From Thermoproteota archaeon (GTDB taxonomy: Archaea; Thermoproteota; Thermoprotei; Thermofilales; B9-G17), in NCBI GenBank assembly GCA_029258885.1, contig JAPDJW010000002.1, positions 544,001-608,000 of the forward strand: a DNA stretch of 64,000 nucleotides. The letters are read 5' to 3'. The notes under the pieces were generated by a model. That model was not told where the DNA came from, made no database searches, and saw only the letters and a program-made list of their open reading frames with translations. This document shows, in pieces, positions 2,694-20,178 of the stretch. A program made the position numbers and the translations under genes. Each line of letters starts with the position of its first letter. The stretch's first letter is position 1.

Positions 2694-5600
2694 CTCTCAA
2701 TTCTCTTTTTTGAGAGTATTTCTGTAGCGCATGGTTAGAAGGGAGGGATATAGGTATAATTCAAACTGGAGGGGTGGGCTCTCAATTCTCTTTTTTAGAG
2801 TATTTCTGTAGCTCAAAAGAGAAGTCTTAATTCAGGAGCTTAAGGAACTCTAAATCCTTCTTCTCTCAATTCTCTTTTTTGAGAGTATTTCTGTAGCCTA
2901 ACTGTGTTAAGATTTTAACGATTAGAGGCAAGGCTCTCTCCTCTCAATTCTCTTTTTTGAGAGTATTTCTGTAGCAGTTCTGGAGAAGGCGACCTGTCTA
3001 CTTTGTTTACTTGGGCTTTCTCTCAATTCTCTTTTTTGAGAGTATTTCTGTAGCAGGCTTGAGGAAAAGGGTTGGATACTACATAAGGTGATAACTCTCA
3101 ATTCTCTTTTTTGAGAGTATTTCTGTAGCTTCAAATAGAGGATTGGCTTTACGACAGAGAAATCGAGGAAATCTCTCAATTCTCTTTTTTGAGAGTATTT
3201 CTGTAGCAAAGATGTAGTCGAGAATAGATATATGAGAGAAAAATATGCGACTCTCAATTCTCTTTTTTGAGAGTATTTCTGTAGCAAGCCTGTTTTTCAC
3301 ACCGACAGCCCCGTGGCTGTAAAGAGCTCTCAATTCTCTTTTTTGAGAGTATTTCTGTAGCTGCAGTGGTGTTTGCGTATGTTATGTATCAGGCGTATAT
3401 GGCCTCTCAATTCTCTTTTTTGAGAGTATTTCTGTAGCGCTTATGATGAAATAGATAAAGACGGGCCTAAATGCATAATCTCTCAATTCTCTTTTTTGAG
3501 AGTATTTCTGTAGCAGATAAGAGAATTCTGATGCTGAGAAATGAGATTATCATCTCTCAATTCTCTTTTTTGAGAGTATTTCTGTAGCCAGCAAAATTAT
3601 TAGTTTTTCTAATTGGGGTTAAAAATGGCCTCTCAATTCTCTTTTTTGAGAGTATTTCTGTAGCAAGAAGAGAAGGAGACTGGTGGTGGCAAACCAACAG
3701 GTACACCTCTCAATTCTCTTTTTTGAGAGTATTTCTGTAGCATTTATGACAGAGACTTTAGTTACACTGTCTCCAGAACAACCTCTCAATTCTCTTTTTT
3801 GAGAGTATTTCTGTAGCGTTACAGTAATGCTTGTGTATACAGACTTCACATAATTGCCTCTCAATTCTCTTTTTTGAGAGTATTTCTGTAGCTCAGAAAA
3901 AAGGAGAAAAAAGATACATACCTTTCAAAATTGACTCTCAATTCTCTTTTTTGAGAGTATTTCTGTAGCAGTTAAGAGAAAAGTATGGAGTGGCCACATG
4001 GAAACTAATTCCTCTCAATTCTCTTTTTTGAGAGTATTTCTGTAGCTATGGAGCTGTGAACCCGTGGGATGGCGTAGGATCCGCTACCTCTCAATTCTCT
4101 TTTTTGAGAGTATTTCTGTAGCAAAAGTATATAGCATTCACTACAGAGGAATGGGAAAAGTATCTCTCAATTCTCTTTTTTGAGAGTATTTCTGTAGCAC
4201 GCCGCCATAACCAACAAGGAGTGGCGTGATGTGGTTATTGACTCTCAATTCTCTTTTTTGAGAGTATTTCTGTAGCGAGCTAAAGGAAAAGGAGTTTACA
4301 GCCTATGACGTATCAGCTCTCAATTCTCTTTTTTGAGAGTATTTCTGTAGCATAATAAATGTATCCTACAGGTATGATTCCTCCACTGACTCCTCTCAAT
4401 TCTCTTTTTTGAGAGTATTTCTGTAGCGCAAGTTACACTATGCAATTCTCCATGAGCATAAGGCTAAGACTCTCAATTCTCTTTTTTGAGAGTATTTCTG
4501 TAGCCCCTGAGTATCGGGGGCTGGAGTTAATAGGCTTCCTTACTGTTCTCTCAATTCTCTTTTTTGAGAGTATTTCTGTAGCCAAGAGGATAGTTAAAGC
4601 TGGTATCCATCCATTAGAGAAGAGCTCTCAATTCTCTTTTTTGAGAGTATTTCTGTAGCGTGTATGTATGAAGGATGTAATTGAAAGATTAAAGAAATTC
4701 TCTCAATTCTCTTTTTTGAGAGTATTTCTGTAGCCATGGAATTACGACTGTACACGTAAAGCTTTCATTGAGATACGCTCTCAATTCTCTTTTTTGAGAG
4801 TATTTCTGTAGCAATAACATATAGGAAATTTGAGGAAATTCAGAAATTACCTAACTCTCAATTCTCTTTTTTGAGAGTATTTCTGTAGCCCAGATAATGC
4901 AAAGTACTTCCTTCGAAGATATTTCACAAACCTCTCAATTCTCTTTTTTGAGAGTATTTCTGTAGCATAAAACTGAAAAGAAAATAGCCAATTACAATAA
5001 TAAGATAACTCTCAATTCTCTTTTTTGAGAGTATTTCTGTAGCCCCGTATTAAAATTGCTTGAAGAAAAATATAATTTAAGATTTCTCTCAATTCTCTTT
5101 TTTGAGAGTATTTCTGTAGCTTAAAGATGAAATTGAAGCAAGAACAAAAGCCAATCAAAAGATCTCTCAATTCTCTTTTTTGAGAGTATTTCTGTAGCGA
5201 AGCTAATATAGTCTTTATAAAGCTCCTAGGATTTCTTAGCCTCTCAATTCTCTTTTTTGAGAGTATTTCTGTAGCGAATTGAATTTGAATTTGGAATACA
5301 TAGGTTGGGTATAAACCTCTCAATTCTCTTTTTTGAGAGTATTTCTGTAGCTATCGTTCGGTTTAGAATTTGAGTTTGGCATCCACAGATTAGGAACTCT
5401 CAATTCTCTTTTTTGAGAGTATTTCTGTAGCGCGACCACTATGCTGCACTCTCAGACAGTGTACACGGCACACTGGCTCTCAATTCTCTTTTTTGAGAGT
5501 ATTTCTGTAGCAAAATTATTCATCATAAAATGCTTGAAAATATTCTTAGCGACTTACTCTCAATTCTCTTTTTTGAGAGTATTTCTGTAGCGCAGGAAGA

Positions 5601-6140
5601 GAAACGAGAAGATTGATGTTCTCCGTGAAGTATTGGACTCTCAATTCTCTTTTTTGAGAGTATTTCTGTAGCTTGGAAAGGATAGGCTCTACTAGTGTTC
5701 ATTTAGACGGTAATCTCTCAATTCTCTTTTTTGAGAGTATTTCTGTAGCACACAATATAATATGTATAGAGTGTCCAGAGAACTAGAAAGAACAATACTC
5801 TCAATTCTCTTTTTTGAGAGTATTTCTGTAGCCCAATTTTAAAGATACTTGAGGAAAAATATAATTTAAGATTTCTCTCAATTCTCTTTTTTGAGAGTAT
5901 TTCTGTAGCTAAGCAATAGATTTGTAGCGAAAATAAACCAGCTTATAATTAAATCTCTCAATTCTCTTTTTTGAGAGTATTTCTGTAGCTGGCTGTGAAC
6001 GGCAGGGTGGTTGAGCCTGAGTACTGGAACGCTCTCAATTCTCTTTTTTGAGAGTATTTCTGTAGCGTTTTTGTAGGAGTATAGGCGGTGAGGTTAAGGA
6101 GAAAGCTCTCAATTCTCTTTTTTGAGAGTATTTCTGTAGC
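2694..6140 (-). CRISPR. CRISPR array 1: 45 repeats, 44 spacers; repeat GCTACAGAAATACTCTCAAAAAAGAGAATTGAGAG
   Basis: 35-bp direct repeats counted by eye; spacers ~39-45 nt, the two trailer ones ~50 nt; repeat at 2779 lacks one G. Orientation from the ATTGAGAG 3' end and the AT-rich leader at 6141+. Confidence 0.98.
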
Positions 6141-6540
6141 TGTTTTTGTTGTGTTTATATTTTGTCTCTTTTTGTATTTATGCGTTTCGGTGTTTTAGCA
6201 AAACTGCATTCTACGTTTAGCCCTATTTAAAGGGGTATATATACAAATATTTTTCAACTATATAAAATCGATGGATAAAATATATAAGCTTGAATTTTTG
6301 GCAGCGGATCTTTTTCTCTTTTTAGAAATGATCTTATTGCTATAATTATGAAATTATTAATGTATGCTGGGGAATATGGTATATTATTTTTAATATTTTT
6401 ATCTACTTATTAAAAATTTATTTTTGAAAATATTTTTGGAATGTTTTATCATAGTGATTTTTCATGAAAAGAGAAATAAATCATATATAAAGGGGGTCAA
6501 TGATTATAAGCCGTAAAATTGCCAAATGTTCAATTTGGTT
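6141..6540 (-). promoter_or_regulatory. CRISPR leader 1 (one arm of the inverted leader duplication)
   Basis: AT-rich, abuts the first repeat, contains TATA-like TTTAAATA/TATATATA; reverse complement matches 18665-19065. Confidence 0.85.
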
Positions 6541-7620
6541 AATGTTATATTTTTGTTTGCTGTTTTATTGTTTATGGAGTTTAGGGAGCTTGTTGGTAGG
6601 TTTAGGTGGCGTAGTTTCGAGGATTATTTGGGTGAGGAGGATTCTGTTCTTGCTGAGGATGTTAGGTTTTTCCGTAGGGTTAGGGGTGAGCTTAGGCGTT
6701 TTGTTGAGGGTTTGAGGGGTTTTAGGGATAGGCTTAGGCGTATCGATCTGGGTAGGATTGATGTTTTTAGGTCTCTCCTGTATGAGGGTCGTGTCTGTGG
6801 TGTTGATGGTACTATTGCTGTCTATCCTACTCCCATAGGCGTTAAGTGTAGGATTGGTGTTATTGCTGTTAACTATGCTGGCGGTAGGCTGGAGAAGGTT
6901 GTTTATGTTAGTGATGCAAACTTGATTGATGAGGAGTTGAGGAGGGTTGATGAGCTTCTCTCCTCCCTTGAGAGAGTTGTCCGTTTCTCCAGGCTCCTCT
7001 ATAGGACTATTATGCTGTATGAGGAGAGGAGGATTGCCCTTGAGAGAGATGAGGATTGGAGGATTGTTCATGGACCATTGATTCCTCTCGAGTTTAGGCT
7101 TGGTAGGCTTGGTGTTGAGGGCGTTCTTGAAGCCTGTCTTGAGCTTGGCGCTAAGCTTATCGATGATGGCCATGTGATTGGTGTTCTTTCATCCACTAAT
7201 AGGCTTAGGATTGCGAGTTTAGGCTATATCCTTAATCCTGGTGAATACCTGTATGTGGGTGAGCTCGGCCGGATTATGGAGGCTGAGAAGAGGAGGCTTA
7301 CGGCTGAGGAGGAGTCGCTTGTGGACGACTTCATATCCAAGTATGGCTCTAAAGTAGCCTTGGGTATATATAGGGTTGGGGCTAGAAGCTTCGTTTTTGA
7401 GGCTAGGAAAGATTTCTTCGATAATGCTGCACACCTTATAATTGCCGACTCACTGAATAATAGGTTTAAGGGTTTTCCCCTGCTCCTCGACTATGCGGAT
7501 TCTATGTGTAGGACTCTGCTTAACAGCAGCGATTTTGAGAGGAAGATTGAGAACATGTATCTCATCGAGGAAGGGGAGGAAGGCCTATTATCCTTCGACG
7601 AGAGGAGGCTTAGAGGCTGA
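6526..7620 (+). CDS. nurA: NurA-family 5'-3' nuclease (true start possibly ATG at 6574)
   Basis: VCGVDGT, IVHGPL (DG-like site) and C-terminal GFPLLLDYAD motifs; herA nearby. Confidence 0.75.
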   Translation: MFNLVNVIFLFAVLLFMEFRELVGRFRWRSFEDYLGEEDSVLAEDVRFFRRVRGELRRFVEGLRGFRDRLRRIDLGRIDVFRSLLYEGRVCGVDGTIAVYPTPIGVKCRIGVIAVNYAGGRLEKVVYVSDANLIDEELRRVDELLSSLERVVRFSRLLYRTIMLYEERRIALERDEDWRIVHGPLIPLEFRLGRLGVEGVLEACLELGAKLIDDGHVIGVLSSTNRLRIASLGYILNPGEYLYVGELGRIMEAEKRRLTAEEESLVDDFISKYGSKVALGIYRVGARSFVFEARKDFFDNAAHLIIADSLNNRFKGFPLLLDYADSMCRTLLNSSDFERKIENMYLIEEGEEGLLSFDERRLRG

Positions 7621-7639
7621 ATTCATGTAGCTAAGGTCT

Positions 7640-8584
7640 CTAGGAGTTTTCAAGGGTATTCTTAGCCCTTATATTGATGGGTGCTTCTTGCTGTTTTTGA
7701 ATGATGTGTAGCACTATTGCGGATGCTAGGAATAAGATACCTATGACGCCTGCATTTAATCCCGCCATAGCGTATTCCAGTATGTGTGCATAGGATTTCT
7801 CATACCATCGGAGCTCTATGAATAGTTGAACTTTAATGTCTACGGGTTTTAGGTAGCTCCTATTCATCGATATCAATACTTTTAGCGTCGGCTCATTCAG
7901 CTCCATTTTCTCTACAACGTAGTATAGGTTTGTATTGTATTTCTCCCTCGGTACGGTGAACGTGAATATGTATAGTGATTTTCCTGTTCCATTAAAGTAT
8001 GATTTAAACGGTAAGCCTGCCCTCCATTTCTCGAAGTTTTGTTCATCTAAGATGTATAGGTTGAATTTCTGTCCGTTCATCTCCTCAGCCCTTCCCGAAA
8101 TCACTATTGAGGTTTTAGGGGGAAATGTTAGCGGCGTTTTTGAGGCGTATGCTGAATTATTGTATACTGTAAGCGTATCTGTAAGGAATTCTTCTGTAAT
8201 GTTTTCTAGAGCCATGTTTACTATCGTCATCTTCAGGCCCCTACCTAATTCGGAGTAGTTTATGGGAAAGGAGAAGATGTATCCGGAGACGTTCTCGGCC
8301 TTCACATAGGAGTCTATGTAGAGGCTGAAGGATTCCCTAACATCAGGGTATTCGTCGAGTACGCCGATGCAGCCGAATACAGTTAAATTTCTCCTATTAG
8401 CAAGGGGTAATTGTAAGGTATAGGATATGGTATCACTGTATGCCTCGTGGATAGTTATGGTGCTATCCTTTAAGATTACGGCCTTAGGGCTCCACTCCTC
8501 GTAGGTAAATGGAATTAAAGCCACTACTAAGCTTAAGAATATAAGGGTTAATCCTATTAATCCTATGAATTCGGTAAACTTCAC
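7640..8584 (-). CDS. Membrane protein with N- and C-terminal TM helices and a beta-rich extracellular region
   Basis: Hydrophobic segments at aa ~5-26 and ~270-295; FNLYILDEQNFEKW segment between them. Confidence 0.7.
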   Translation of the reverse strand: MKFTEFIGLIGLTLIFLSLVVALIPFTYEEWSPKAVILKDSTITIHEAYSDTISYTLQLPLANRRNLTVFGCIGVLDEYPDVRESFSLYIDSYVKAENVSGYIFSFPINYSELGRGLKMTIVNMALENITEEFLTDTLTVYNNSAYASKTPLTFPPKTSIVISGRAEEMNGQKFNLYILDEQNFEKWRAGLPFKSYFNGTGKSLYIFTFTVPREKYNTNLYYVVEKMELNEPTLKVLISMNRSYLKPVDIKVQLFIELRWYEKSYAHILEYAMAGLNAGVIGILFLASAIVLHIIQKQQEAPINIRAKNTLENS

Positions 8585-8771
8585 GAGTAAATATATCTGT
8601 TAATCCTTTATTAAGTTTTCAGTTTCACAGTTAAATCTATGCTTTAAGATTATGAGTGACTAGGTACAGCCTATTATCAGCAGCTTATAAGGCGTAATCC
8701 TTTAGATTTTAGCTGAAGGAATAGTTAGTTTTATTAAATCAGGGTTTTAATATTATATTCGAGGGGTTTTT

Positions 8772-10370
8772 GTGTCTAGTAGGCCGATTGGCTATGTGGC
8801 TTTCGATACTAAGGTTGATACCCAGTATTCTAGCCTCTCCGCTATAAACGTGTTTATGGATAATATTGATAAGATCCATAGGGGCAAGTATGTCCGCATA
8901 GACTCTACTGAGGGTAGGAGGTTTGTTGGGCAGGTTGTAGCTGGCCCATTCTATATGCCTGAGGGGCTTAGCCCCAGCTCTCACGTTGCTCAAGCTTTTA
9001 CGATTAGGGGTGAGAGGTTTAAGTCTCTTCCACCCTACTACGCCGTCTTCTACGTTGAGATACTTGGTGAGTGGGAGAAGGAGTTTAAGTCCACCTATAC
9101 TAAGCCTAGGCCTAAGTCCCCCGTATACGAGATGGGTGCTCTCGAGATATCGGATATCCTCGGCCTAAGCAAGGGTGACATGGTTTTAGGCCATCATATC
9201 GGGTATAAGGGCGTTAAGATTAAGCTTCCATCAAGCCACATGGACGTTTTACCTAGGAACGTCGGCATATTCGGAACCGTTGGCAGCGGGAAGACTAATA
9301 CAGCACAGGTTCTCATAGAGGAGGCCGCGAGACACAACTGGAGTGTTATAGTGATAGATATTGAGGGCGAATACACCTACATGGACTATCCGAACGACGA
9401 CCCCGAGATGTATGAAGTACTGAAGAGCATATACGGCATCGAGCCGTTTAAAATAGAGAATTTCCACGTATTCGTCCCCGTAGGTAGGGATTCTACGCGT
9501 GGAAGCGAGGCAGTTAGATTCGGTATACCGTTCTTCCAGATAAACCCGTACGTGTTGGCCGAGATTATCAGGGCTACCGAGCCACAGCAGAGGTATCTGA
9601 GCATAGCTATAGGTGAGCTTTTAAGCCTAAGGGAGGGAAGCGGAGCCGAGGAGGCTACGGAGTTCGAGGAGTTCGCCTTCGGAGGCTCCAAGGAGGTTGA
9701 GCCTATAACTCTCGAGGAGGTAATTAACCATATTGAAAGTAAGATTAGCTCTACTAGGGATAGGGGTGTCGTCTCCGCCCTAACCGCGCTATCGACGAAG
9801 CTTAGGAGGCTTGACCTTTACGGCGTTATTGATGAGGGCAAGCCTATAGACTTCAGCTCTATACTTAAGCCAGGCCACGTTTCGGTCCTAGATGTAAGCG
9901 ATGTTGAAGATAACGTTAGGAATATATGTATAGCCTGGCTCCTCGACACAGTGTTTAACCTTAAGCTTAGGGATGTCGAGAGGAAGCTGCCTAAAATCAT
10001 GATCGTAATTGAGGAGGCACACGCCTTCGTAAGTAAGGAGGTTAGGGATAAGATGGAGGCTACGATCGACCTGCTTAAGAGGATAGCTAGGAGGGGTAGG
10101 AAGAGGTGGATATCCCTCGTATTCATATCCCAGCAGCCCGGCCACCTCCCGCCGGAGATATTCGAGCTATGTAACACTAGAATTATACATCAGCTTAGAA
10201 GCGAGATGAATATTAAGGCTATTAGGGAGACCACCGGAGCATTAACGAGGGAGCTTGCCCGGAATATAGTCAACCTATCGAAGGGTGAGGCTATAGTCAC
10301 ATCCCCCGTACTAAGGTATCCAGTACTATGTAAGATAAGGCCAGCCGCTACCAAGAGGTTTAAACACTAG
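8772..10370 (+). CDS. herA: HerA/FtsK-family ATPase with N-terminal HAS barrel
   Basis: Walker A GTVGSGKT, DIEGEY, Walker B IVIEEAH, arginine finger RRGRK, SQQP. Confidence 0.9.
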   Translation: MSSRPIGYVAFDTKVDTQYSSLSAINVFMDNIDKIHRGKYVRIDSTEGRRFVGQVVAGPFYMPEGLSPSSHVAQAFTIRGERFKSLPPYYAVFYVEILGEWEKEFKSTYTKPRPKSPVYEMGALEISDILGLSKGDMVLGHHIGYKGVKIKLPSSHMDVLPRNVGIFGTVGSGKTNTAQVLIEEAARHNWSVIVIDIEGEYTYMDYPNDDPEMYEVLKSIYGIEPFKIENFHVFVPVGRDSTRGSEAVRFGIPFFQINPYVLAEIIRATEPQQRYLSIAIGELLSLREGSGAEEATEFEEFAFGGSKEVEPITLEEVINHIESKISSTRDRGVVSALTALSTKLRRLDLYGVIDEGKPIDFSSILKPGHVSVLDVSDVEDNVRNICIAWLLDTVFNLKLRDVERKLPKIMIVIEEAHAFVSKEVRDKMEATIDLLKRIARRGRKRWISLVFISQQPGHLPPEIFELCNTRIIHQLRSEMNIKAIRETTGALTRELARNIVNLSKGEAIVTSPVLRYPVLCKIRPAATKRFKH

Positions 10371-11013
10371 ATTTAAGGAGGGATTTAACTAGCCTGTATG
10401 CTTCAGCTATATCCAGCTTGGAATCCCTACTCCTCAGCCTATTTATCATTCTCCTTACAAACCTCCTGTCCTCACTCCTTAAGTCCTCAAGCTTTAACAT
10501 CTCCCTTAGAGCGGATATCATGAGTAGTTTCGCATACTTCACCTGCCCGGTGGTGGTTGCTTTGCTTGCTATAGCCAGCGATTTTTCGGCTTTACCGAAT
10601 ATAATCTTTCTCCAATCTTTAGCCTTCCTCTCCCTCACTTCATATAGTGCATATCCCTCAAAGACTATAGCTCCCCTTAACCTAAGCTGCTTAGGTAGTT
10701 TCTGCCTCCATGGGGCTACGTATACGTTCTCAGATATTCTCCTTAAACCGCATTTATCTAGGTTTTCTCCGACAGCTACTATTACCCTATCTCCCTTAAC
10801 GCTGCCGCTTTCTAGGGCTTTTAACCCGCATAGGGTTAGTGTAATGTATCCTCCATCCACATTGATGTAGCCCTTCTCTATCAGGCTGTTTAATGCGCTC
10901 GATAATCCGCTTACATCTTCATCTATCGACTTAGCCAGATTGGAAATGCTTATTTTACCCTTCCTCTTAACTATCTAAAGGATATTTAGTTCAACTATGC
11001 TAAGTGTATCCAC
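10360..11013 (-). pseudogene. wHTH-domain protein with in-frame TAG at 10975-10977 (the ORF track shows only 10360-10860)
   Basis: Frame extends to GTG at 11013: VDTLSIVELNIL*IVKRKGKISISNLAKSIDEDVSGLSSALNSLIEKGYI, a wHTH interrupted by one stop. Confidence 0.6.
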
Positions 11014-11715
11014 ATGTATAGTTTAGAGCAATGCAGGATTTTAGGTTTACTGGTAATGTTTAGAAATATCCACCTAGCGGACATATCATTCTACCTGGAC
11101 GCTAGGATGGATGATATTCTCACCTACTGTAGAAGCCTGCGGGGCTACGGCTTCCTAAAGCTCCATGAGAATTCAGCATTGATTACCGAGGCCGGAATAC
11201 GTGCATGCCTAGGGGATCTCGCATTCAGTGGACGGAGATGGTTTATTCTAGTGGTGGATCCATCTGGTGCGCCGAGGGAGATGGATTTCGTGAACGTTAG
11301 GGGACAAGCATACGTAACTCCCTTTACCCTTCAGATGCTCGAGCTAATTAAGCTGCTCTATCGGGAGATCTTCGTAGTCTCATCAAAGGCCTGCAGTATA
11401 TGGATTAGGATGGCTGAGGATAGGATGCCGTACCGCAGAATTATAGACGTCATGAGGACTATAGAGGATATTCAAGATAAACTATCTAGGCTGAGCTATC
11501 CCCGTTCGAGCAGATACGTTAAAGCTATCATATCCAGGCTTAACAGGTGTAGGAGGGAGCTTGAGAAGGCCGCTAGGATAGCTAAGCTTGATTTCAGGCT
11601 AGTAGGGCTAAATAGATCCTTCTCGAGGGATCCGCTAAGCTATTCTAGGGAGCTGTACGGGGTAGCCTTATCGTGTAGGGATAAGGTTCTACGTAGTGCT
11701 GAGGGTCTTAGATAG
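11014..11715 (+). CDS. wHTH-domain hypothetical protein, architecture similar to the divergent neighbour
   Basis: LEQCRILGLL...LRGYGFL...LITEAGIRA wHTH pattern, then WFILVVD...AYVTPF and a helical tail. Confidence 0.6.
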   Translation: MYSLEQCRILGLLVMFRNIHLADISFYLDARMDDILTYCRSLRGYGFLKLHENSALITEAGIRACLGDLAFSGRRWFILVVDPSGAPREMDFVNVRGQAYVTPFTLQMLELIKLLYREIFVVSSKACSIWIRMAEDRMPYRRIIDVMRTIEDIQDKLSRLSYPRSSRYVKAIISRLNRCRRELEKAARIAKLDFRLVGLNRSFSRDPLSYSRELYGVALSCRDKVLRSAEGLR

Positions 11716-11986
11716 CTATATCCTCCTCCTCATGTATCTCGTAGTTGTGTATTATCGTGAGGACTTTAGCTTCGTCTCGTCCACATATTGGTATGGCTAT
11801 AACCCTAGCTTTACTTGGACCTATTATCCTCCTTATTTCGCTCATTATCCCCTTTATTTCGGCGGCTGAAGCCTCGAATAGGAATGCGCTGTACTGTATC
11901 CTATCTCCGCCCATATCCTTAAGGTATCTCCTAACCTCATTCCTAATGCTGTCATCTGATATGTCGTAGACTATAATGTACTTCAA
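11708..11986 (-). CDS. cas2: CRISPR-associated endonuclease Cas2 (copy 1)
   Basis: MKYIIVYDISDD, GGDRIQYSAF, IPIC; 92 aa. Confidence 0.92.
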   Translation of the reverse strand: MKYIIVYDISDDSIRNEVRRYLKDMGGDRIQYSAFLFEASAAEIKGIMSEIRRIIGPSKARVIAIPICGRDEAKVLTIIHNYEIHEEEDIAI

Positions 11987-12037
11987 GCTTCACCTAATAC
12001 TTATATCCCTTTAAATCCTTATTATTTTTGAGGATAA

Positions 12038-13287
12038 ATGACGCGTATAATTAAGATGTTTCTCGAGGATAACGTGTTGTCGGTTTTAATAGATTTAGTT
12101 GCTCTGGATGAAACGTTTGGAGAACGCTCACGCGAAGTACTGGGTAAAGTTGTGTCTAGAGTGGAGGCCATCCTTCTAGCTCATGGAGGCAGAAACCTAG
12201 AGAGGGAGGAAGGTCTGACTTACGTTAAGGTTAAATGTAAAATTAATCCGAGGAGCTACGGCTACGTCGAGAGGAGCCTCACATCCCTAGAGGATGAAGT
12301 TAGGAGGAAGCTGGGGCTGGTTGAACACCTTGTTGCAGTATTTAGGAGTACCTCCAAGCTGTCTCCGTATCTCGTGAGCTTCTATGAGGTTTCCCCCGCG
12401 CTCCCTAGGAGCCCGGAGGGCTATAGAGTTACTTCACGGATAGCCAGAATCCTATCGAGGGAGAGGAGAGTTATCTGGGCGAGTACGGCCTCGGAGTCCT
12501 AGGCTATCTCGTTAAGCCGGGAGTTTCTATTGAGGATAGCTTTAAGGTATACGTTGGAGATAGGGAGTACACCTTAAATAAGCTGCGCGATAGGCGTCTC
12601 AACTTTAACCTTAGAGGCGATAGGGAGTTCTTCAAAAAGATCGTTGATAGGGGTATTAGAAGGAAGTTCCGTGAGCTAGGGTTTAGGGTTCGCGGATACA
12701 TAGTGGTCTATAGCCAGCCCATATACTCATATGAGTATGTGGATGTTTGGCCAGCATGTGAGTTCCAGACTATAATTGATTCGGATGGCACGCTATCCCT
12801 CGCCTTATCGCCGAGACATATCATCGAGTCGATGAGGAGCATAATGGAGGACTACGAGAGCTTAGAGGAGCTGGTTAAAAGGAGGCGGGAGCTAGTGGGA
12901 TGCAGTGTTAGAAGTATCGTTGATGGACAAGTATACAGGATAGTTTCGGTGCTCGATAAGAGGGCGAGGGATTCATTTGAGGAGCTCAACGGTTCAAGCC
13001 TATGCGAGTTCTATAGGGACTACAATATCGACCCAATGGAGCCAGCTATAGTTATCGAGAGGTATGGTTTCAGGCTCCTCCACGCTCCCTCACTTCTAAG
13101 GAGGATATATAGTCCAGCTGAACTGGCAGGTTTAGGCGTAGCTAGGGAGGTTATGAGAGCCATAAAGCTCAACCTGCTAAGGTGGAGCGATACCTCACGC
13201 AACATTGTTAGAACGTTATCTCCCATAGAGATAGATGGAATCGAGATAAGGTTCTCCGATCAGCCCGAGGTTCTCGAGGTGGCGTAG
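12038..13287 (+). CDS. Argonaute N-L1-PAZ-(L2 start) half, interrupted by a -1 frameshift near 12480-12500
   Basis: The frame of ORF 12703-13287 is open from 12427 (GLGVLGYLVKP...FFKKIVDRGIRRKFRELGF) and overlaps the end of ORF 12038-12502; PAZ-like SLCEFYRDYNIDPMEPAIV and LLHAPSLL; L2-like C-terminus. Confidence 0.7.
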
Positions 13288-13288
13288 C

Positions 13289-14236
13289 ATCTACAGGGAG
13301 TTCTGTGATTGGGGCTACATCCTCGCTCCACGTAATGGGGAGATTATAGCTAAGGGACAGATTGAAGCGGGCAGATTTAAGCCCAAGGATAGGATAGTTC
13401 TCTCGGGCTCCGGCTCAATAAATGTCGATGCTGTGGCGAATATCGTCGGTGCGGGAGGCTCAATTTTGGTTGAGAAGGGATCTATACAGCTAGACTACTT
13501 CAACTCTATGTTCTCACGTAACCTGCTGGCTCAGCTCGCGTCTGTGGAGAATTCTGAGGTTAGGAGCAGAGTTGCCTCCTCTATATTGGAGGCTGCTGCA
13601 TATAATAAGATTAGGGTTCTGGAGATACTGGAGGTTCCCGAGGACGTTAGGAGCAGGGTTGTCGGGGAGATTAAGGGGCTTATATCGATGCTTAAAGGAA
13701 CTGTTCTAAGCAGATTGATGGGCGTTGAAGCTAGAATAACCAAGCTCTACTTCGAGGCTCTAAGATACGTAATTCCCGTGGAGTATGGTTTTAAGGCTAG
13801 AACGCGTAGACCCCCTAAGGACTACTTTAGCGCTGCACTAAGCTATGGGAACATGCTCCTCTACAGACACGTACTTAAGGAAATACTTAGGTTCGGCCTG
13901 GATCCTAGGCTAAGCTACCTCCATACGCCCTATAGGCATAGGCCATCGCTAGCGCTCGATATAGCCGAGGAGTTTAGGCAGGCCGTGGTTGATCTAGCAG
14001 TTATTCCGCTCTACACGTCGAGGTCTATGAGCATTAAGGGGGACTTCCAGGTTTTCGGCTCATCCATATACCTCAATAAGCGTGGAAACTTTAAGGTTAG
14101 GAGGAGCTTCCACCACAGGATGAACCTTAGAGTTAAGGGGAGGAGCCTCGCCGACGCAGTAAGAGGTCAGATTAGGAAGCTGCTGGAGTTCATCCACGGC
14201 GATAGGAGCGAATATACTCCGTTCAGAATTCAATAG
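13289..14236 (+). CDS. cas1: CRISPR integrase Cas1, catalytic residues intact (track start 13433; frame open further upstream)
   Basis: MGVEARITKLYF, ALSYGNMLLY, GLDPRLSYLH, SLALDIAEEFR; upstream in-frame IYREFCDWGYILAPRNGEII...IVLSGSGSIN fits the Cas1 beta domain. Confidence 0.92.
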   Translation: MYREFCDWGYILAPRNGEIIAKGQIEAGRFKPKDRIVLSGSGSINVDAVANIVGAGGSILVEKGSIQLDYFNSMFSRNLLAQLASVENSEVRSRVASSILEAAAYNKIRVLEILEVPEDVRSRVVGEIKGLISMLKGTVLSRLMGVEARITKLYFEALRYVIPVEYGFKARTRRPPKDYFSAALSYGNMLLYRHVLKEILRFGLDPRLSYLHTPYRHRPSLALDIAEEFRQAVVDLAVIPLYTSRSMSIKGDFQVFGSSIYLNKRGNFKVRRSFHHRMNLRVKGRSLADAVRGQIRKLLEFIHGDRSEYTPFRIQ

Positions 14237-14480
14237 TATCTATTATAATGATATTTTCATAGCATCTCCTACATGGAAATATTATATCGACCCTCCCAGC
14301 CCCCTCCGCAACGATTCTCCTAATGTCGTTAATCATCCTCTCGGCGTTTTTCTCGTCCAGCTCTACCTCATAAACGCTGTACTCCCTGAAAACGCCGCCG
14401 TAGTCCTTAAGCCTATTCCTTAATCTATCCCTAAGCCTATCATATCCAACTGGGATATCGAAGACGACTATTATCTTCAA
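14223..14480 (-). CDS. cas2: CRISPR-associated endonuclease Cas2 (copy 2)
   Basis: MKIIVVFDIP, LKDYGGVFREYSVYE, IFPC. Confidence 0.88.
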   Translation of the reverse strand: MKIIVVFDIPVGYDRLRDRLRNRLKDYGGVFREYSVYEVELDEKNAERMINDIRRIVAEGAGRVDIIFPCRRCYENIIIIDTIEF

Positions 14481-15346
14481 TAAACCGCCTCCTTAAACGG
14501 TATAAAGCCTCCAGCCGGATTCATCAGATAGGATGCAAGCCCCTTCGCAGCGGCCTTTATGTGTTTAAATAGAGGCATCCTCCTACCATCAGTATCCTCA
14601 ACGTTCCTCTCAACGATATTCCTAAGATACTTCAGGAGAAGCCTCCTCCCCTCATAGCTACCTAAGTCGATGGATGAAAGGATGTCGGAACCAACTTCAA
14701 CGAGGCAACGCCAGACAGTCGATGGCTCAAATACTAGAAGGAAATCCCTTGTAAGCGATCTCCTATTTACGAAGCCTATGTGTGGGGTTAAGCCAGCCCT
14801 AACCACGGCGTCCAGACATTCTGCTTCAATAAAATAGCTGAGATACTGGATAACTGACTCGATTAGGCTAAGTTTTACTCCAAGATATCTTGATAAAAGC
14901 TTAAGCGCATTAACCCTAACTTCCTCCAGCTCCCCCTCGGCCCTGAATGGAAGGTTAAGTCTCGAGAAAAAGGCGCAGAGGTTATGGTTGAATGCCTCCC
15001 TAATGCATGAAGCTATCTCCTCAGCTCTCGAGGTAGAGTACTGGGTTAATATCAGCTCAACGTGCTTCCTTTGAAGCATCCCCGTAAACCACGCTATCCT
15101 ATCCTTAAATACCAGAGCTATGGTTACGTTATCCTCTGAAGCCAGCGATAGAGCCGATGTACTTATCCTCCTACATCCATCCAATACTAGGAGGTAGGCA
15201 GTTAAGGAGGCTATCTCACGTCTACGATCTCCAGCCTCAACTACGAAGCGCCTACTCCTACGGCCTAAATTAAAGCCATTGTACGCTATCCAGTAGCTCC
15301 TCCTCAACCAATCCCCTTGATCATAGTATATAGTTTCCTTATCCAC
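14477..15346 (-). CDS. Divergent Cas1 paralogue, predicted catalytically inactive
   Basis: Cas1-like N-domain (GFNLGRRSRRFVV, ISTSALSLASEDNVTI) and AGLTPHIGFVN, SLTRDFLLVFEP; no GxE motif, His replaced by Asn, DxxE acidic residue lost. Confidence 0.7.
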   Translation of the reverse strand: MDKETIYYDQGDWLRRSYWIAYNGFNLGRRSRRFVVEAGDRRREIASLTAYLLVLDGCRRISTSALSLASEDNVTIALVFKDRIAWFTGMLQRKHVELILTQYSTSRAEEIASCIREAFNHNLCAFFSRLNLPFRAEGELEEVRVNALKLLSRYLGVKLSLIESVIQYLSYFIEAECLDAVVRAGLTPHIGFVNRRSLTRDFLLVFEPSTVWRCLVEVGSDILSSIDLGSYEGRRLLLKYLRNIVERNVEDTDGRRMPLFKHIKAAAKGLASYLMNPAGGFIPFKEAVY

Positions 15347-16134
15347 GGCCTAGGCTCAACCCTACCCTCCCTAATAATGATCACGCCCCGCTCCTCAAGC
15401 TCTTTAATTCTCTCGTACCCTATAATATCCTTTAAATCGGCCAGTGATATGTGTGGGAAAATCCTATCTATGAGGGAGAGGAATTCCTCCTTTACAGTTA
15501 TCGGCAGCAGGGGGAGTGCCACAACCTCCCTGAAGGACTCATGTATATAATATACCTTATCCGCTCCCATAACCATTGAGATAATGGTGGCGAATGAGGT
15601 TTCAGGCTTAAAGCCAGCAGTAGCATTAACGTAGACCCTGTATCCAGCATTCTTCTTACTCTTAACGACCCCAGCAATTTTATCTATTAAATTGGATAAA
15701 GCCTCATCGAAGAGCGAGGCGCCGAGCCCGAAGCCCCTAACCCTAACGGGCTCATTAACGTAGTACCCCCTAGACTTAAGGTGTTCATAAACTATCCTTC
15801 CACATAGATATCCGGTGCCGGTATCAGTGGTATATAGCCCTATCTCAATATCCTCAATCCTCGATGGACCGTAGAGGTCGGTGAACCTGTAGAATGCGTT
15901 AAGCTCAGCACTAGCACTATAGGGATCAGAGTTCACATACTCCAGAAGCCTATCGAAAACCTTGGAACCCCTATGGGCGGAAGCCTCAGCCTTCTTCTGA
16001 TCATCATGGTCGGGTGGAAGCCTACCCCACGAACTTATTTTAAGCTCCTCAGCCTCATCCTTAAAAGTCCTTGCAAAGTTTAGGAGGATTGCAGTTCCAA
16101 CCGTAACCACGTGAAATACCTTCATAGATACCAC
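15304..16134 (-). CDS. CARF protein, APE2256/SSO1393 (Crn1-like ring nuclease) family, with wHTH tail
   Basis: HVVTVGTAIL, SAELNAF, TDTGTGYLCG, NATAGFKPE, YYIHESF. Confidence 0.8.
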   Translation of the reverse strand: MVSMKVFHVVTVGTAILLNFARTFKDEAEELKISSWGRLPPDHDDQKKAEASAHRGSKVFDRLLEYVNSDPYSASAELNAFYRFTDLYGPSRIEDIEIGLYTTDTGTGYLCGRIVYEHLKSRGYYVNEPVRVRGFGLGASLFDEALSNLIDKIAGVVKSKKNAGYRVYVNATAGFKPETSFATIISMVMGADKVYYIHESFREVVALPLLPITVKEEFLSLIDRIFPHISLADLKDIIGYERIKELEERGVIIIREGRVEPRPWIRKLYTMIKGIG

Positions 16135-16164
16135 AAAAATATAACAGCATAACGAGTATATAAA

Positions 16165-16878
16165 ATGATGCTACGTGGATACAGTCGCCTAGCAGCCTCA
16201 GGCATAAATAGAATGGTTAGAGTAACGGATGTCACGTTATACCTCTTCTGTCCGCGGAAACTCTACCTAGTGGGCTTCCTAGGGATAAGAGGCAGGCCGA
16301 CTAGGGAGAGCATTATGGGTAAATTGGCCCACTACGCATACCTAAGGGCAAGCATCCTAAAGATAACCGAGAATAGGGTGGAGGAGGAGAGCGTGAATAT
16401 AGCTAGAGAGGCAGTCGAGAAGAAGCTTACGGAGGGGCTAAGCGATACGGAGGTCAAGGAGATAGTTGTAAAAACCTTAAGGTTTAGGGCTGAAAACCCG
16501 ATTACGGGTGGGGTTGAGGTCGAGAAGTACGTTGAATCGGTAAGGCTGGGGTTAAACGGACAGATAGACCTAATGGAGGAACATACGCCAGTGGAGGTAA
16601 AGTACAAGTCCAGAGCTGAATACAGGGATCTAATACAGCTAACACTCTACACACTACTACTCGAGGACGTCTACGGGTGGGATATAGATTACGGCTACAT
16701 CGATCTACTTAAGGCTTCAAGAAGGTTAAGAATTGAAGTAAATAATAGGCTTAGAGGTGATGCGCTTAAGCTTAGGGATAAAGTGCAGGAGACAATACTA
16801 ATGGGGACGTATCCGCCAGCTAGGGATAAGTGTAGGGGATGCGACCTAAAGATAGAGTGTAGATCCCTCTTCCACTAG
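16165..16878 (+). CDS. cas4: CRISPR-associated exonuclease Cas4
   Basis: YLFCPRKLY, GQIDL, PVEVKY, QLTLY and C-terminal KCRGCDLKIEC (four Fe-S cysteines). Confidence 0.88.
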   Translation: MMLRGYSRLAASGINRMVRVTDVTLYLFCPRKLYLVGFLGIRGRPTRESIMGKLAHYAYLRASILKITENRVEEESVNIAREAVEKKLTEGLSDTEVKEIVVKTLRFRAENPITGGVEVEKYVESVRLGLNGQIDLMEEHTPVEVKYKSRAEYRDLIQLTLYTLLLEDVYGWDIDYGYIDLLKASRRLRIEVNNRLRGDALKLRDKVQETILMGTYPPARDKCRGCDLKIECRSLFH

Positions 16879-18077
16879 AGGAACCAGAGCCTAGAATAAT
16901 ACTCCTCCGACGGCGATACACCCAACCTAAGGAAGCTACATATCCTATGGGCATACAAAGTCGTTATTGGAAGCCTAGTTGAAGCAAACGCTGAAGCCCA
17001 GTGTAGCTCGCTCAACCAGTACACATCCCTGGCAATATCATACATACTAACCTCCCAGTTAGATGCCTCAGCCAGCTCAACAACAACCGGCCTAACCAAT
17101 CCAGACACATCAATATAGGGGTGCTCCGGGAAGCCTGAGGTAACCACAAGATACCTATATTTATCAAGCACATAGAACGTACCTTTCTCCGGATTAGTAA
17201 CTCTTCTCCCAACCCTCCTGGTAACCCTAGGCACAGCCCTCTTCTTAACCTCAACAAAAACCCAGTTAGATGCAACGCCCTCATCAACAGCCGAGTCCAT
17301 AACATCCCTAACCGCTTCAAGCTCAACATCAAAGGTAGAGCCATCCCTATGAACAACTATTAAATTAACCCTACCAGCATGCCTATGAATAACGTCGAGA
17401 GCGAGCGTAAGCACATTCCTAATCGAATAGATAACCTCAACCCCGGGATTAAACTCGAAGCGCCAGTCGAAGAATATGCCCCCATCAAACACGAAGACTG
17501 TTACAACAACGTTGTTACCGACAGTATCCAAGCCAATATACGCATCACCTAAAAGCCTATCCCCCAAAACCCAAGGTATTCCCCCAGCCTTACAGTAGAT
17601 AGACAGAGCTAAATTAAAGAGAACATAGGATTTACCCGCAAGCCTTCTAATAGTAGAGTATGTAACCATTTGACTAGGAATCCCACGTAGAGCTAAAGCC
17701 TGCTTAATAGGAACATAGGGATCCTCCTCAAAACCCGGATAGTTTTCATCGGGAACAGCTACGATAGCTACATCAACATCCTCAATTGAATCGATGACAT
17801 CAGCGTACCTATCATATGATTCAAAGAAGTACTCAACGTCCCCAACCCTACAGCCAAACCATCCAGTAAGACCTCCAAAACCCCTAACACCATAGATAAG
17901 GTTATCCATGAGGACACGAGAGTAGCTATACATTCCACGAGGACAGATAAAACAGAGCCTAACAGCATCAGGACCGGAGAAAGGACCGAAGCCGAGTTTA
18001 AACCCCTCATAGGGGAAAATAGAGGTACCACTCCCAAACCTTAAAACAGGCCTAGAGAAGACGCCTCCCCTAACCAT
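16875..18077 (-). CDS. ago: Argonaute L2-MID-PIWI half with DEDH tetrad
   Basis: PVLRFG...GFGPF; MID pocket Y121/K125/Q136/K163; YIGLD(184), E214, HRD(245)G, RLPITTLYAH(377); WFL C-terminus. Confidence 0.92.
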   Translation of the reverse strand: MVRGGVFSRPVLRFGSGTSIFPYEGFKLGFGPFSGPDAVRLCFICPRGMYSYSRVLMDNLIYGVRGFGGLTGWFGCRVGDVEYFFESYDRYADVIDSIEDVDVAIVAVPDENYPGFEEDPYVPIKQALALRGIPSQMVTYSTIRRLAGKSYVLFNLALSIYCKAGGIPWVLGDRLLGDAYIGLDTVGNNVVVTVFVFDGGIFFDWRFEFNPGVEVIYSIRNVLTLALDVIHRHAGRVNLIVVHRDGSTFDVELEAVRDVMDSAVDEGVASNWVFVEVKKRAVPRVTRRVGRRVTNPEKGTFYVLDKYRYLVVTSGFPEHPYIDVSGLVRPVVVELAEASNWEVSMYDIARDVYWLSELHWASAFASTRLPITTLYAHRICSFLRLGVSPSEEYYSRLWFL

Positions 18078-18142
18078 AAGATAATAAAGCTAACCAAATA
18101 TATAAAGCCTAAGACACCGCTTAATCGATACAACGATGTATC

Positions 18143-18553
18143 CTATAAGCTGCCTCTAGGAAAGAGGGGACCCCCAGACACAAGCTTCAACACGTATTTA
18201 AAGTACTCCCTAAAGTGATCCGCCAAATAACTCCTCTCAGAGGACTTAAGCTCAGCAAGCTGTTCCTCTATAAACACATCATCGTCATCGGGCTCCATTC
18301 TGAAATACTTCGTAAGAAACTTGGCAGTAACCAGTATGTAGAAGTCGCCGAGACTTAAAATAGCGTAGGCTGGCGGAATACCCGAACCATAAATCCTCAC
18401 ATGATACTTCCACGCCTCAAGAGCCTCCTGAGCCATCGGATACACATCACCACTCTCATACCCACACCTCGGACAAACAACACCCTCCCTAAACACAGCG
18501 TAGCGAGTACCACAAGACGGACACCTATAATTATACGAAGAATGATACGTCAC
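18143..18553 (-). CDS. Zn-ribbon hypothetical protein
   Basis: CPSC...CPRC at the N-terminus, then a helical domain; first gene transcribed inward from leader 2. Confidence 0.65.
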   Translation of the reverse strand: MTYHSSYNYRCPSCGTRYAVFREGVVCPRCGYESGDVYPMAQEALEAWKYHVRIYGSGIPPAYAILSLGDFYILVTAKFLTKYFRMEPDDDDVFIEEQLAELKSSERSYLADHFREYFKYVLKLVSGGPLFPRGSL

Positions 18554-18664: not shown

Positions 18665-19065
18665 AACACCAAATTGTACTTTTGGCAATTTTACGGCTTA
18701 TAGTCATTGACCCCCTTTATATACGGTTTACTTCTCTTTTTGCGAAAAACTTCTATGATATTTTTATCCAAAAAATATTTGAAAAATAATATTTTAATAT
18801 TTAAATCAATATTCTTAATACTATTCAATAATTATAGTGAATATAATTAAAGATTATTTAACTCAATGATAAAATTATTTTTGAAAAGTGAATAGGGCTT
18901 GCTGCCAAAAATTCGATCTTATATATTTTATCCGTCAAAAATATATAACTAAAAAATTTTTGTATATATACCCCTTTAAATAGGGCTAAACGTAGAATGC
19001 AGTTTTGCTAAAACACCAAAACACATAAATACAAAAAGAGACAAAAAATAAACACAGCCAAAACA
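18665..19065 (+). promoter_or_regulatory. CRISPR leader 2 (second arm of the inverted leader duplication)
   Basis: Reverse complement near-identical to 6141-6310 and 6490-6540, e.g. GTATATATACCCCTTTAAATAGGGCTAAACGTAGAATGCAGTTTTGCTAAAACACC. Confidence 0.85.
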
Positions 19066-20178
19066 GCTACAATAAAACTCTCAAAAAAGAGAATTGAGAG
19101 GCCTTGTGATGTGGAAGTATAGTCGCTTGATGGCATCTGCTCTGCTACAATAAAACTCTCAAAAAAGAGAATTGAGAGGCAATATTGGCTGTGTCGTTGC
19201 CTATAAGATACAATGGGTATATCGCTACAATAAAACTCTCAAAAAAGAGAATTGAGAGAGGCAGTCATATCGTGTTGCCTTCTCCATCCTCTTGGCAAGT
19301 ATCGCTACAATAAAACTCTCAAAAAAGAGAATTGAGAGATTTTTCCACAATATGGTGAATTCACTTGAGTGTTCTGTCTTAGCTACAATAAAACTCTCAA
19401 AAAAGAGAATTGAGAGATATACTCGTCAATTTTCGTTAACGCCTCTGTTAAGTCCTCGCTACAATAAAACTCTCAAAAAAGAGAATTGAGAGATATAATC
19501 TAGTTTCATCTACCTCGCTTTCAAAGAGACCAACGCTACAGAAATACTCTCAAAAAAGAGAATTGAGAGTAGCATTTTGAGTAATTTAACGATTTTATCC
19601 CACTCTTCTGCTACAGAAATACTCTCAAAAAAGAGAATTGAGAGTCTTCATCAGTTACCTTGAATGGCAAGTTCTCTATTCTTACTTGCTACAGAAATAC
19701 TCTCAAAAAAGAGAATTGAGAGAGACATAGTCTTTTACCACAGTAATGTAGCCGTCAATAATGCTACAGAAATACTCTCAAAAAAGAGAATTGAGAGGCA
19801 TGCCTAGTCGTAACCGGCGGCATACTAATTCTCATAAGCGCTACAGAAATACTCTCAAAAAAGAGAATTGAGAGTATAGAAGCGTTTACTTTTCTTTTCT
19901 CCTCATTAAGCTTATTGCTACAGAAATACTCTCAAAAAAGAGAATTGAGAGGATAGGGATTTTAGGTTATTCTAATTCTTTTTTCAATTTCGCTACAGAA
20001 ATACTCTCAAAAAAGAGAATTGAGAGGAATTATGCTCAGTTTTTAGGTATTGCTTAATGACTTTTATGCTACAGAAATACTCTCAAAAAAGAGAATTGAG
20101 AGAGCATGTTAGTGTACATCTCTACAACATCCTTTAATGTCATGCTACAGAAATACTCTCAAAAAAGAGAATTGAGAG
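19066..20178 (+). CRISPR. CRISPR array 2: 15 repeats, 14 spacers, plus a trailing spacer and a GCTACA stub at 20218
   Basis: Repeats 1-6 are GCTACAATAAAACTCTCAAAAAAGAGAATTGAGAG; repeats 7-15 are GCTACAGAAATACTCTCAAAAAAGAGAATTGAGAG, identical to array 1. Confidence 0.98.

Follow-up and report, generated by a model that had tools for sequence, protein, structure and literature searches.

A split Argonaute of the long-A kind among the adaptation genes of a type III-D-like CRISPR-Cas locus from Thermoproteota

A 64,000-nucleotide stretch of contig JAPDJW010000002.1 (positions 544,001 to 608,000; assembly GCA_029258885.1) from a heat-loving archaeon of the Thermofilales, referred to below as the window, carries between two CRISPR arrays a cassette of genes (6526-18553) that includes an Argonaute encoded in two pieces. 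The analysis assigns the cassette to adaptation within a type III-D-like CRISPR-Cas locus and finds in it a clade-specific, always-split Argonaute of the long-A kind. With about equal weight for and against, we propose that this Argonaute acts as a DNA-guided slicer in functional coupling with a heteromeric Cas1-Cas2 integrase. Gene identities were assigned from a listing of open reading frames together with scans against Pfam, PADLOC and NCBIfam; L-numbers denote loci or contigs with the Argonaute family or its relatives and G-numbers denote genomes, G000 being the present one. The scans bore out the gene content given in a first-pass annotation made from the sequence, namely nurA, herA, two cas2 genes, a cas1, a degenerate cas1, a CARF gene, cas4 and both Argonaute halves, the product of nurA being NurA-like by an orthologue's Pfam match and by the fold of a low-confidence model.

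The first-pass annotation had also stated that no recognisable interference complex is present, which holds within the cassette and fails just beyond the window. A module of Cas10-HD, Csx10-like and Csx7 genes is located at G000:C1:533927-542694, ∼1.3-10 kb to the left of the window start (544001), and the apparent absence is therefore an artefact of the window edge. A whole-genome search placed six repeat-associated mysterious protein (RAMP) genes at G000:C1:534005-542218. The effector stretch is on one strand throughout and encodes an 895-amino-acid (aa) Cas10 with HD and palm domains (palm2), a Csx10-like protein, several Cas7 proteins of the Csx7 type and two small proteins. Scores against the type III-D models were 160.7 and 134.1 bits for Csx7 (TIGR02581), above the cut-off of 108, and 49.9 bits for Csx10 (TIGR02674), below the cut-off of 177. 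The order of the locus is type III-D-like effector, Csx1, array A, cassette, array B and Csm6-like genes; the Csx1 gene (585-1943, minus strand; CARF-HEPN) separates array A from the type III module. About 230 kb away in the genome is a separate locus, type I-like and with a Cas1 of its own.

The MID-PIWI half of the Argonaute (16875-18077, minus strand, 400 aa) matches PF02171 and the PADLOC models of prokaryotic Argonaute (pAgo) at 1.9e-66, and its closest PDB structures are those of the DNA-guided long-A proteins CbAgo (6qzk, 1.4e-21) and CpAgo. The catalytic DEDX tetrad is present in the window protein as D184, E214, D245 and H377 (DEDH), and DEDH is intact throughout the subclade to which it belongs. 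Among 24 family members the position of D184 is occupied by D in 17 and E in 5, that of D245 by D in 14 and E in 10, and that of H377 by H in 15 and D in 2. The 5'-phosphate pocket is canonical (Y121, K125, Q136 and K163) and invariant in all 24 sequences, and is not of the MID-OH type found in MpAgo-like proteins. In L100, L101 and L105, which belong to one genus (G058/G059), the open frame of the PIWI half is 508 aa, ∼100 residues longer at the N-terminus than in other members.

The N-half is encoded at 12038-13287 on the plus strand. Its structure model is confident, with a predicted local distance difference test score (pLDDT) of 88, and residues 96-416 superpose on the N-L1-PAZ-L2 lobe of CbAgo (Z 20.4, 294 aligned residues) and of TtAgo (Z 18.7). 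As modeled, the complete long-A set of N, L1, PAZ, L2, MID and PIWI domains is present, distributed over two polypeptides. Since the superposition starts at residues 6-8 of CbAgo and TtAgo, residues 96-416 already cover the whole lobe and residues 1-95 are predicted to form an extra N-terminal domain. This domain of ∼95 residues has a strand-strand-helix-strand-strand-helix pattern and is conserved family-wide. A profile of it compared with PDB sequences returned nothing below E 0.17, hhalign against a Cas2 alignment gave a probability of 0.9%, and a feature search of the ESM Atlas returned only whole-protein Argonaute look-alikes. A complex prediction for the N-half and MID-PIWI half with Cas2a, one of the two Cas2 proteins of the cassette, as partner scored 0.00 against a mark of 0.32, a result that weighs neither way.

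The separation of the two halves was found in every member of the family. A word-indexed search gave 31 relatives of the PIWI half and an exhaustive search gave ∼23 clusters at 50% identity, the representatives of which are each no longer than 415 aa and so depart from the single polypeptide of long-A pAgos. Scores drop from ∼1e-42 to 1e-32, where single-chain pAgos (716-880 aa, 28-33% identity) begin, and no fused form of this Argonaute family was found above E 1e-32 in the exhaustive search. The same domain boundary is used in every member, and the sequence comparison indicates that the split is real and old. A recent inversion that broke a single ago gene was considered, the halves being on opposite strands and 3.6 kb apart in the window, and was ruled out by the uniform split boundary and by variants in which the two genes are adjacent. 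The neighbourhoods of three of the nearest single-chain relatives are free of cas genes. In two of the nearest single-chain Argonautes (∼750 aa, one cluster from Odinarchaeota) the Argonaute gene is followed by a DNA_primase_S-like gene (L107:2886-3770 and L109:10247-11134), a different and possibly conserved association.

The first-pass annotation had described a split catalytic Argonaute. The split and the DEDH tetrad stand, and the N-half is frameshifted in this genome. It is read here in two overlapping frames (12038-12502 and 12427-13287), the frame being broken by the loss of one G at 12477 (GGG in place of GGGG). The metagenome contigs of two close strains, L016 (98.6% identical) and L024 (96%), have GGGG and encode an intact N-half of 415 aa; in all, five assemblies from other samples, which represent two or more related strains, have the N-half intact. 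The deletion was reproduced in an independent Logan contig of the probable source run at a depth of 12, and Logan contigs of three other studies have the extra G, which shows the deletion to be real and restricted to this population. Both parts of the N-half gene are under purifying selection, with a ratio of nonsynonymous to synonymous divergence (pN/pS) of 0.07-0.15 relative to the intact L024, which dates the break as recent. Since the N-half is frameshifted, the Argonaute arm is probably off in this genome, as judged from the sequence.

The cassette encodes two Cas1 and two Cas2 proteins. Cas1a (13289-14236, plus strand; PF01867, 1e-45) keeps the E/H/D triad in all seven lineages compared (motifs GVEA, YLH and LDIAEE). 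Its frame is open from 13250 and contains no ATG, GTG or TTG before 13433. At the junction with the N-half (13285-13291) the window, L016 and L024 read TAG-C-ATC, and L006 reads TAG-A-ATG at the same place; the 48 Cas1a codons after the ATC have a pN/pS of 0.30, compared with 0.83 out of frame. The position of the junction, the ATG in L006 and the selection on these codons suggest that Cas1a is probably made by re-initiation or from an ATC start directly after the N-half stop. Cas1b (14477-15346, minus strand) matches PF01867 in its N-terminal part only. Its catalytic His is replaced in five of the seven lineages, the window included (GFVN), its Glu column is not conserved and ∼40 residues are deleted from the helical domain; it is still an open, selected gene (pN/pS 0.14). 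A word-indexed homology search with Cas1b gave one near-identical protein, and the other relatives were taken from Argonaute neighbourhoods. Cas2a (11708-11986, minus strand; PF09827, 2e-17), the Argonaute-linked orthogroup, and Cas2b (14223-14480, minus strand; PF09827, 2e-13) form separate orthogroups with motifs of their own, both with a conserved Asp. Between strains, the genes of the cassette are under purifying selection (pN/pS 0.07-0.30, against the same out-of-frame value).

The distribution of these paralogues was compared with that of the Argonaute among 120 genomes of the class, seven of which contain the PIWI family. Matches of the Cas2a type (at least 90 bits) occur in four genomes, all PIWI-positive, the next best Cas2 scoring 66 bits. 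Full-length Cas1b matches (at least 130 bits) occur in five genomes, four of them PIWI-positive, ordinary Cas1 proteins scoring at most 53 bits; the fifth is an 85%-complete assembly from a genus whose other member is PIWI-positive. The four genomes that share PIWI and the Cas paralogues belong to four different families, and related genomes are not independent. On this sequence-based evidence Cas2a and Cas1b are not generic duplicates and are almost restricted to genomes with this Argonaute.

The association was followed through ∼18 non-redundant lineages (PIWI identity 35-58%) from Thermoproteota, Nezhaarchaeota, Jordarchaeia and Baldrarchaeia, in all of which the Argonaute is in two pieces. 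Co-location in many other genomes and metagenome contigs was found for homologues of both Argonaute halves, of the dead Cas1, of the two Cas2 types, of Cas4 and of HerA/NurA, so that the neighbourhood search which the first-pass annotation had proposed as a check came out in its favour; the lack of co-location that it had named as counting against the unit was not what was found. On every contig with enough flanking sequence, cas genes or an array lie beside the Argonaute, and the same genes recur in several orders across the lineages. In seven lineages (eight with the fragmented copy in L023) cas2a is divergent from the N-half across a gap of 43-73 bp, 52 bp in the window. The stop of the N-half lies 1 nt before the cas1a start or overlaps it in four lineages, as seen for the window, L006 and L008, and in seven lineages or more there is an overlap of the N-half with the PIWI start. 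The Cas4-family gene (16165-16878, plus strand; PF01930, 1.5e-15) and the PIWI gene share 4 nt at their 3' ends, and cas4 abuts PIWI in four lineages (the window, L006, L023 and L026). Arrays directly adjoin the Argonaute pair in six loci.

Gene order varies considerably among the loci. L006 is a gene-for-gene mirror of the window. In L008 and L012 the N-half is followed by cas1a, cas2b, cas1b and PIWI, and then by nurA-herA. The Nezhaarchaeales locus L005 is arranged as cas1b, cas2b, cas1a, a CARF gene, cas4, cas6, herA, nurA, a gene for 225 aa and cas2a, with the N-half and PIWI in tandem at the end. In L014 (Baldrarchaeota) cas2a is followed by the N-half and PIWI in tandem, a homologue of the 233-aa protein of the window, cas1a and cas1b; L013 (Jordarchaeales) has an array, the tandem N-half and PIWI genes and a type III module homologous to the one adjacent to the window. 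The minimal form, L003, comprises a gene for 221 aa, a CARF gene, cas2a, the tandem Argonaute genes and an array of 41 repeats. A homologous type III module also flanks the Argonaute in L023, and RAMP genes lie near it in L008. In L005 the PIWI gene is followed by a gene (11194-12771) for a 525-aa protein of no known family, shorter relatives of which are encoded at L017:3468-3932 and L105:12543-13061 (44-55% identical over 60-90 residues).

HerA and NurA accompany the Argonaute in seven of the ∼18 lineages, the window counted. The HerA-type ATPase of the window (8772-10370, plus strand, 532 aa) matches PF01935 (4e-24), PF05872 (6e-11) and the PADLOC HerA models, including 'Type III coevolved'. 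The NurA-like nuclease (6526-7620, plus strand, 364 aa) gave no match in Pfam, NCBIfam or PADLOC, and a profile search of PDB sequences returned no NurA. It is 49-52% identical to neighbours of HerA in L008, L012 and L021, and the orthologue in L005 matches Pfam NurA (PF09376) at 8e-6. The model of the window protein is of low confidence (pLDDT 55), with NurA structures 2ygk (6.6e-7) and 3tal as the top Foldseek matches; the name NurA therefore comes from the fold search and the Pfam match of one orthologue. Two small genes had been annotated as winged helix-turn-helix paralogues. Both genes are present, one for a 233-aa protein with a probable N-terminal winged-helix domain (11014-11715, plus strand) and one for a 166-aa protein (10360-10860, minus strand) that is possibly a truncated relative of it. 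Their matches to winged-helix models are below significance (E 0.01-0.3) and their mutual hhalign probability is 3.5%, so that the proposed fold and paralogy are weakly supported. The 233-aa gene is conserved beside cas2a, with homologues in L006, L012, L014 and L024. The 166-aa gene has a pN/pS of 0.22 relative to L024, and a gene of similar size and the same orientation is found in L006.

The cassette is enclosed by array A (2694-6140, minus strand, leader at its right end) and array B (19066-20178, plus strand), in agreement with the two arrays of the first-pass annotation. The 35-nt repeat was detected in 59 copies in the window, 44 in array A and 15 in array B, with none expected by chance, and the spacers are ∼39-48 nt long. 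The 3' end of the sense repeat, ATTGAGAG, is presumably close to the usual archaeal 8-nt tag of CRISPR RNA (crRNA). The leaders (6141-6539, minus strand, and 18668-19065, plus strand) are inverted copies, an inverted pair of ∼430 nt that points at the cassette from both flanks and is 80-87% complementary, the arms being 6106-6337/18869-19100 at 87% and 6395-6539/18668-18812 at 80%. A 3-nt variant (GCTACAATAAAAC...) is common to the six leader-proximal repeats of array B (19066-19492); neither the nine older repeats nor array A has it. A shared variant is the pattern expected if a mutation arose in the first repeat and each later integration then copied that repeat, which indicates that array B probably acquired spacers recently.

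Long-A pAgos with a DEDX tetrad and a YKQK pocket, such as CbAgo and TtAgo, use 5'-phosphorylated DNA guides, the supply of which needs end-processing nucleases, and in Cas1-Cas2 integrases a single Cas1 of each dimer is catalytic. The feeding of prespacers to Cas4-Cas1-Cas2 by HerA-NurA resection and Argonaute cleavage had been put forward as a possibility in the first-pass annotation. From these established properties of long-A Argonautes and Cas1-Cas2 integrases we infer the reassembly of the halves, the use of DNA guides and every step that links the Argonaute to the integrase. The N-half and the MID-PIWI half would reassemble into a slicer guided by 5'-phosphorylated DNA that cuts invader DNA, producing ends. 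HerA-NurA would resect these ends and Cas4 would trim them. A heteromeric integrase with Cas1a as catalytic subunit, Cas1b as structural subunit and Cas2a/Cas2b as bridge would insert the products at the two leader-proximal repeats, the dead Cas1b occupying the non-catalytic position of each Cas1 dimer. The outcome would be guide-directed, or 'primed', acquisition of spacers for a type III system. A more specific form of this proposal makes the Argonaute a physical subunit of the spacer-acquisition machine, in which the extra domain of the N-half would dock on Cas2a and the Cas1a-Cas1b heterodimer and cut DNA would be handed directly to integration; this we hold only as a tentative possibility.

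Several findings weigh against coupling of the Argonaute to the integrase. The case for it is one of gene linkage, not of contact or DNA exchange, and accessory defence genes are concentrated in type III loci, so that co-regulation without mechanistic coupling would also yield conserved linkage. Guides of pAgos are typically 15-21 nt, shorter than the spacers of the arrays, and Argonaute products could not serve as prespacers without further processing. Tetrad residues are substituted, D to E or otherwise, in about one third of the family, and slicing may therefore not be universal. In addition, L003 is without Cas1 within 8.7 kb, the PIWI-positive genome G019 is without Cas2a and Cas1b, and the N-half is broken in the present genome with no sign of decay in the remaining cassette.

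An explanation that we consider unlikely but worth retaining is that the split Argonaute is a DNA-interference module that works in parallel within the type III locus and covers untranscribed or escaping DNA, while Cas1a, Cas1b, Cas2a and Cas2b adapt independently. Regulation would be shared through the CARF/ring-nuclease and winged-helix proteins, Cas4 may be an ACE-like helper and HerA-NurA may supply guides. Consistent with this explanation are the type III modules or RAMP genes beside the Argonaute in L013, L023 and L008, the adjacency of cas4 to PIWI, the presence of Argonaute and array with no Cas1 nearby in L003 and L013, and the cooperation of long-A pAgos with Cas4-family nucleases in interference, as in APACE1 (PMC12094033). 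It leaves unexplained the near-exclusivity of Cas2a and Cas1b to this Argonaute, the apparent translational coupling of the N-half to cas1a in four lineages and the divergent cas2a/N-half promoter region, which is kept even in minimal loci.

The use of crRNA-derived guides was raised as an alternative by the first-pass annotation and is improbable. The Argonaute would take guides from the flanking arrays and act as an alternative effector, as has been proposed for proteins of the MpAgo type in type III-B loci; the arrays that adjoin the Argonaute pair and the Cas6 genes that adjoin PIWI in several loci are consistent with this, and the CRISPR-embedded MpAgo uses 5'-OH RNA guides (PMC6299218). 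The MID pocket of the present family argues against it, being of the 5'-phosphate type in every sequence compared, as do the DNA-guided CbAgo, CpAgo and TtAgo, its nearest relatives in structure and sequence. Products of Cas6, moreover, carry a 5'-OH and an 8-nt tag. It is very improbable that there is no functional unit at all, only defence-island clustering or a decaying remnant with the split a result of gene breakage. The frameshift and the Cas1a without canonical start in this genome, and the patchy distribution in the class, could be read in that way. The identical split boundary, the intact open reading frames and start/stop overlaps, the persistence of linkage at 35-58% identity and through several gene orders, the low pN/pS values and the absence of the frameshift from related strains largely refute it for the family.

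The unit belongs among the CRISPR-embedded Argonautes, with several features that were not described before. The MID-OH Argonautes of Marinitoga piezophila and Thermotoga profunda are located in type III-B loci on the scheme Cas1-Cas2-Cas6-pAgo-Cmr (PMC6299218; Kaya 2016 is cited there and in PMC5995195); the Mp, Mk and Tp proteins adjoin cas1-cas2, and an interaction with acquisition was suggested and never shown (PMC5995195). The present family resembles these in the placement of the Argonaute gene inside a type III CRISPR locus, with cas1, cas2 and cas6 as neighbours. It differs in being archaeal, always in two proteins and equipped with a canonical 5'-phosphate pocket and an extra N-terminal domain, in the type III-D-like effector and in the dedicated Cas2a and dead Cas1b paralogues. 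In the split long-B protein AfAgo and its partner AfAgo-N, the N-terminal lobe and MID-PIWI are also encoded by separate, usually adjacent genes and form a heterodimer (PMC10954474). AfAgo-type proteins, however, are catalytically dead, without PAZ and paired with a downstream effector, whereas the present family has DEDH (in the subclade of the window), a full N-L1-PAZ-L2 lobe and cas neighbours; the inactive PIWI, reduced or absent PAZ and downstream effector that characterize split long-B proteins are not its features. Nor does it have those of the short pAgos (SPARTA, SPARSA and SPARDA), as the N-L1-PAZ-L2 partner is without an effector domain and gave no TIR or SIR2 match.

In APACE1, a long-A pAgo cooperates with the Cas4-family nuclease ACE1, and end-processing is thought to feed guide generation (PMC12094033). 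Here too a presumably catalytically active Argonaute of long-A likeness adjoins a Cas4-family nuclease; ACE1, however, is cyanobacterial, operonic with a single-chain pAgo and outside CRISPR, whereas the present Cas4 is convergent with PIWI in a full adaptation cassette. Cas HerA-NurA pairs occur within CRISPR-cas loci of types I and III from thermophilic Crenarchaea (PMC3973734, PMC3396285). The match of the window HerA to the 'HerA Type III coevolved' model of PADLOC points to likeness with those pairs, with which no Argonaute has been reported, while here they are Argonaute-linked. Relative to the canonical Cas1-Cas2(-Cas4) integrase, the cassette shares the triad of Cas1a, the conserved Asp of both Cas2 proteins and the presence of Cas4, and differs in having two Cas1 and two Cas2 orthogroups, in the loss of the catalytic His from one Cas1 in most lineages and in the position of the Cas1a start 1 nt past the stop of the Argonaute N-half. 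The main text of the 2025 CRISPR-Cas classification makes no mention of Argonaute, PIWI or HerA (PMC12669027), a terascale CRISPR survey does not mention Argonaute, and nothing of the kind is described in two recent surveys of archaeal defence. The first-pass annotation knew of no description of this combination, which agrees with the literature consulted, in which no paper or classification describing the unit was found; that coverage is incomplete, and the lack of a description there proves nothing.

That Argonaute and CRISPR memory might cooperate has been suggested, and left open, ever since the first Argonaute genes were noticed beside cas1 and cas2 (PMC5995195); the known cases are of gene proximity only. 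The present clade offers testable hypotheses of protein contact through its dedicated Cas2, its dedicated dead Cas1, the putative translational coupling of an Argonaute half to Cas1 and the conserved extra domain, together with several natural variants of gene order across two archaeal phyla-level groups. If the coupling is true, type III systems, for which guide-directed ('primed') adaptation is not known, would have a new way of selecting spacers; the clade would also provide a natural heteromeric Cas1 integrase and a split slicer that is thermostable and might be turned into a tool. If it is false, the family would still be, within the incomplete coverage of the literature, the first catalytically competent, obligately split Argonaute lineage that we have found described.

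The cassette and its surroundings contain further genes. The CARF protein (15304-16134, minus strand) is of the Cas_APE2256/ring-nuclease type (PF09651, 8e-37) and matches TIGR02619 above the cut-off and NF040951 below it (1.6e-31). The gene at 7640-8584 (minus strand) encodes a 314-aa protein, beta-rich in the middle and with a hydrophobic segment at each terminus; no homologue was found in the other Argonaute loci, and this lineage-specific insert is probably outside the unit. Upstream of PIWI and on the same strand, a gene for a zinc-ribbon-like 136-aa protein (18143-18553, minus strand; weak zinc-ribbon matches below the cut-off) was found elsewhere only in strain L016 among the compared loci. 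Cas6 (338 aa) is encoded at 35537-36553 on the plus strand and is of the size class of the Cas6 genes beside PIWI in other loci. Elsewhere in the genome, a very weak second PIWI-like match (E 1.2e-4, 29% over 90 residues) was detected at G000:C4:172797-173063 (L002) in an open frame of 467 aa. Synonymous divergence from L024 varies more than 20-fold along 10360-17234, from a pS of 0.012 in the 233-aa gene to 0.27 in cas2b and cas1a, a variation that suggests recombination mosaics within the cassette. To the right of array B are two Csm6-like CARF-HEPN genes and a small CARF gene (21128-22612, 26826-28202 and 31749-32204), between which lie an ABC-transporter pair (22659-26254) and a DUF234 ATPase (28205-29575). 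Csx1 and the ring-nuclease-type protein bring the number of CARF proteins encoded in the locus to five.

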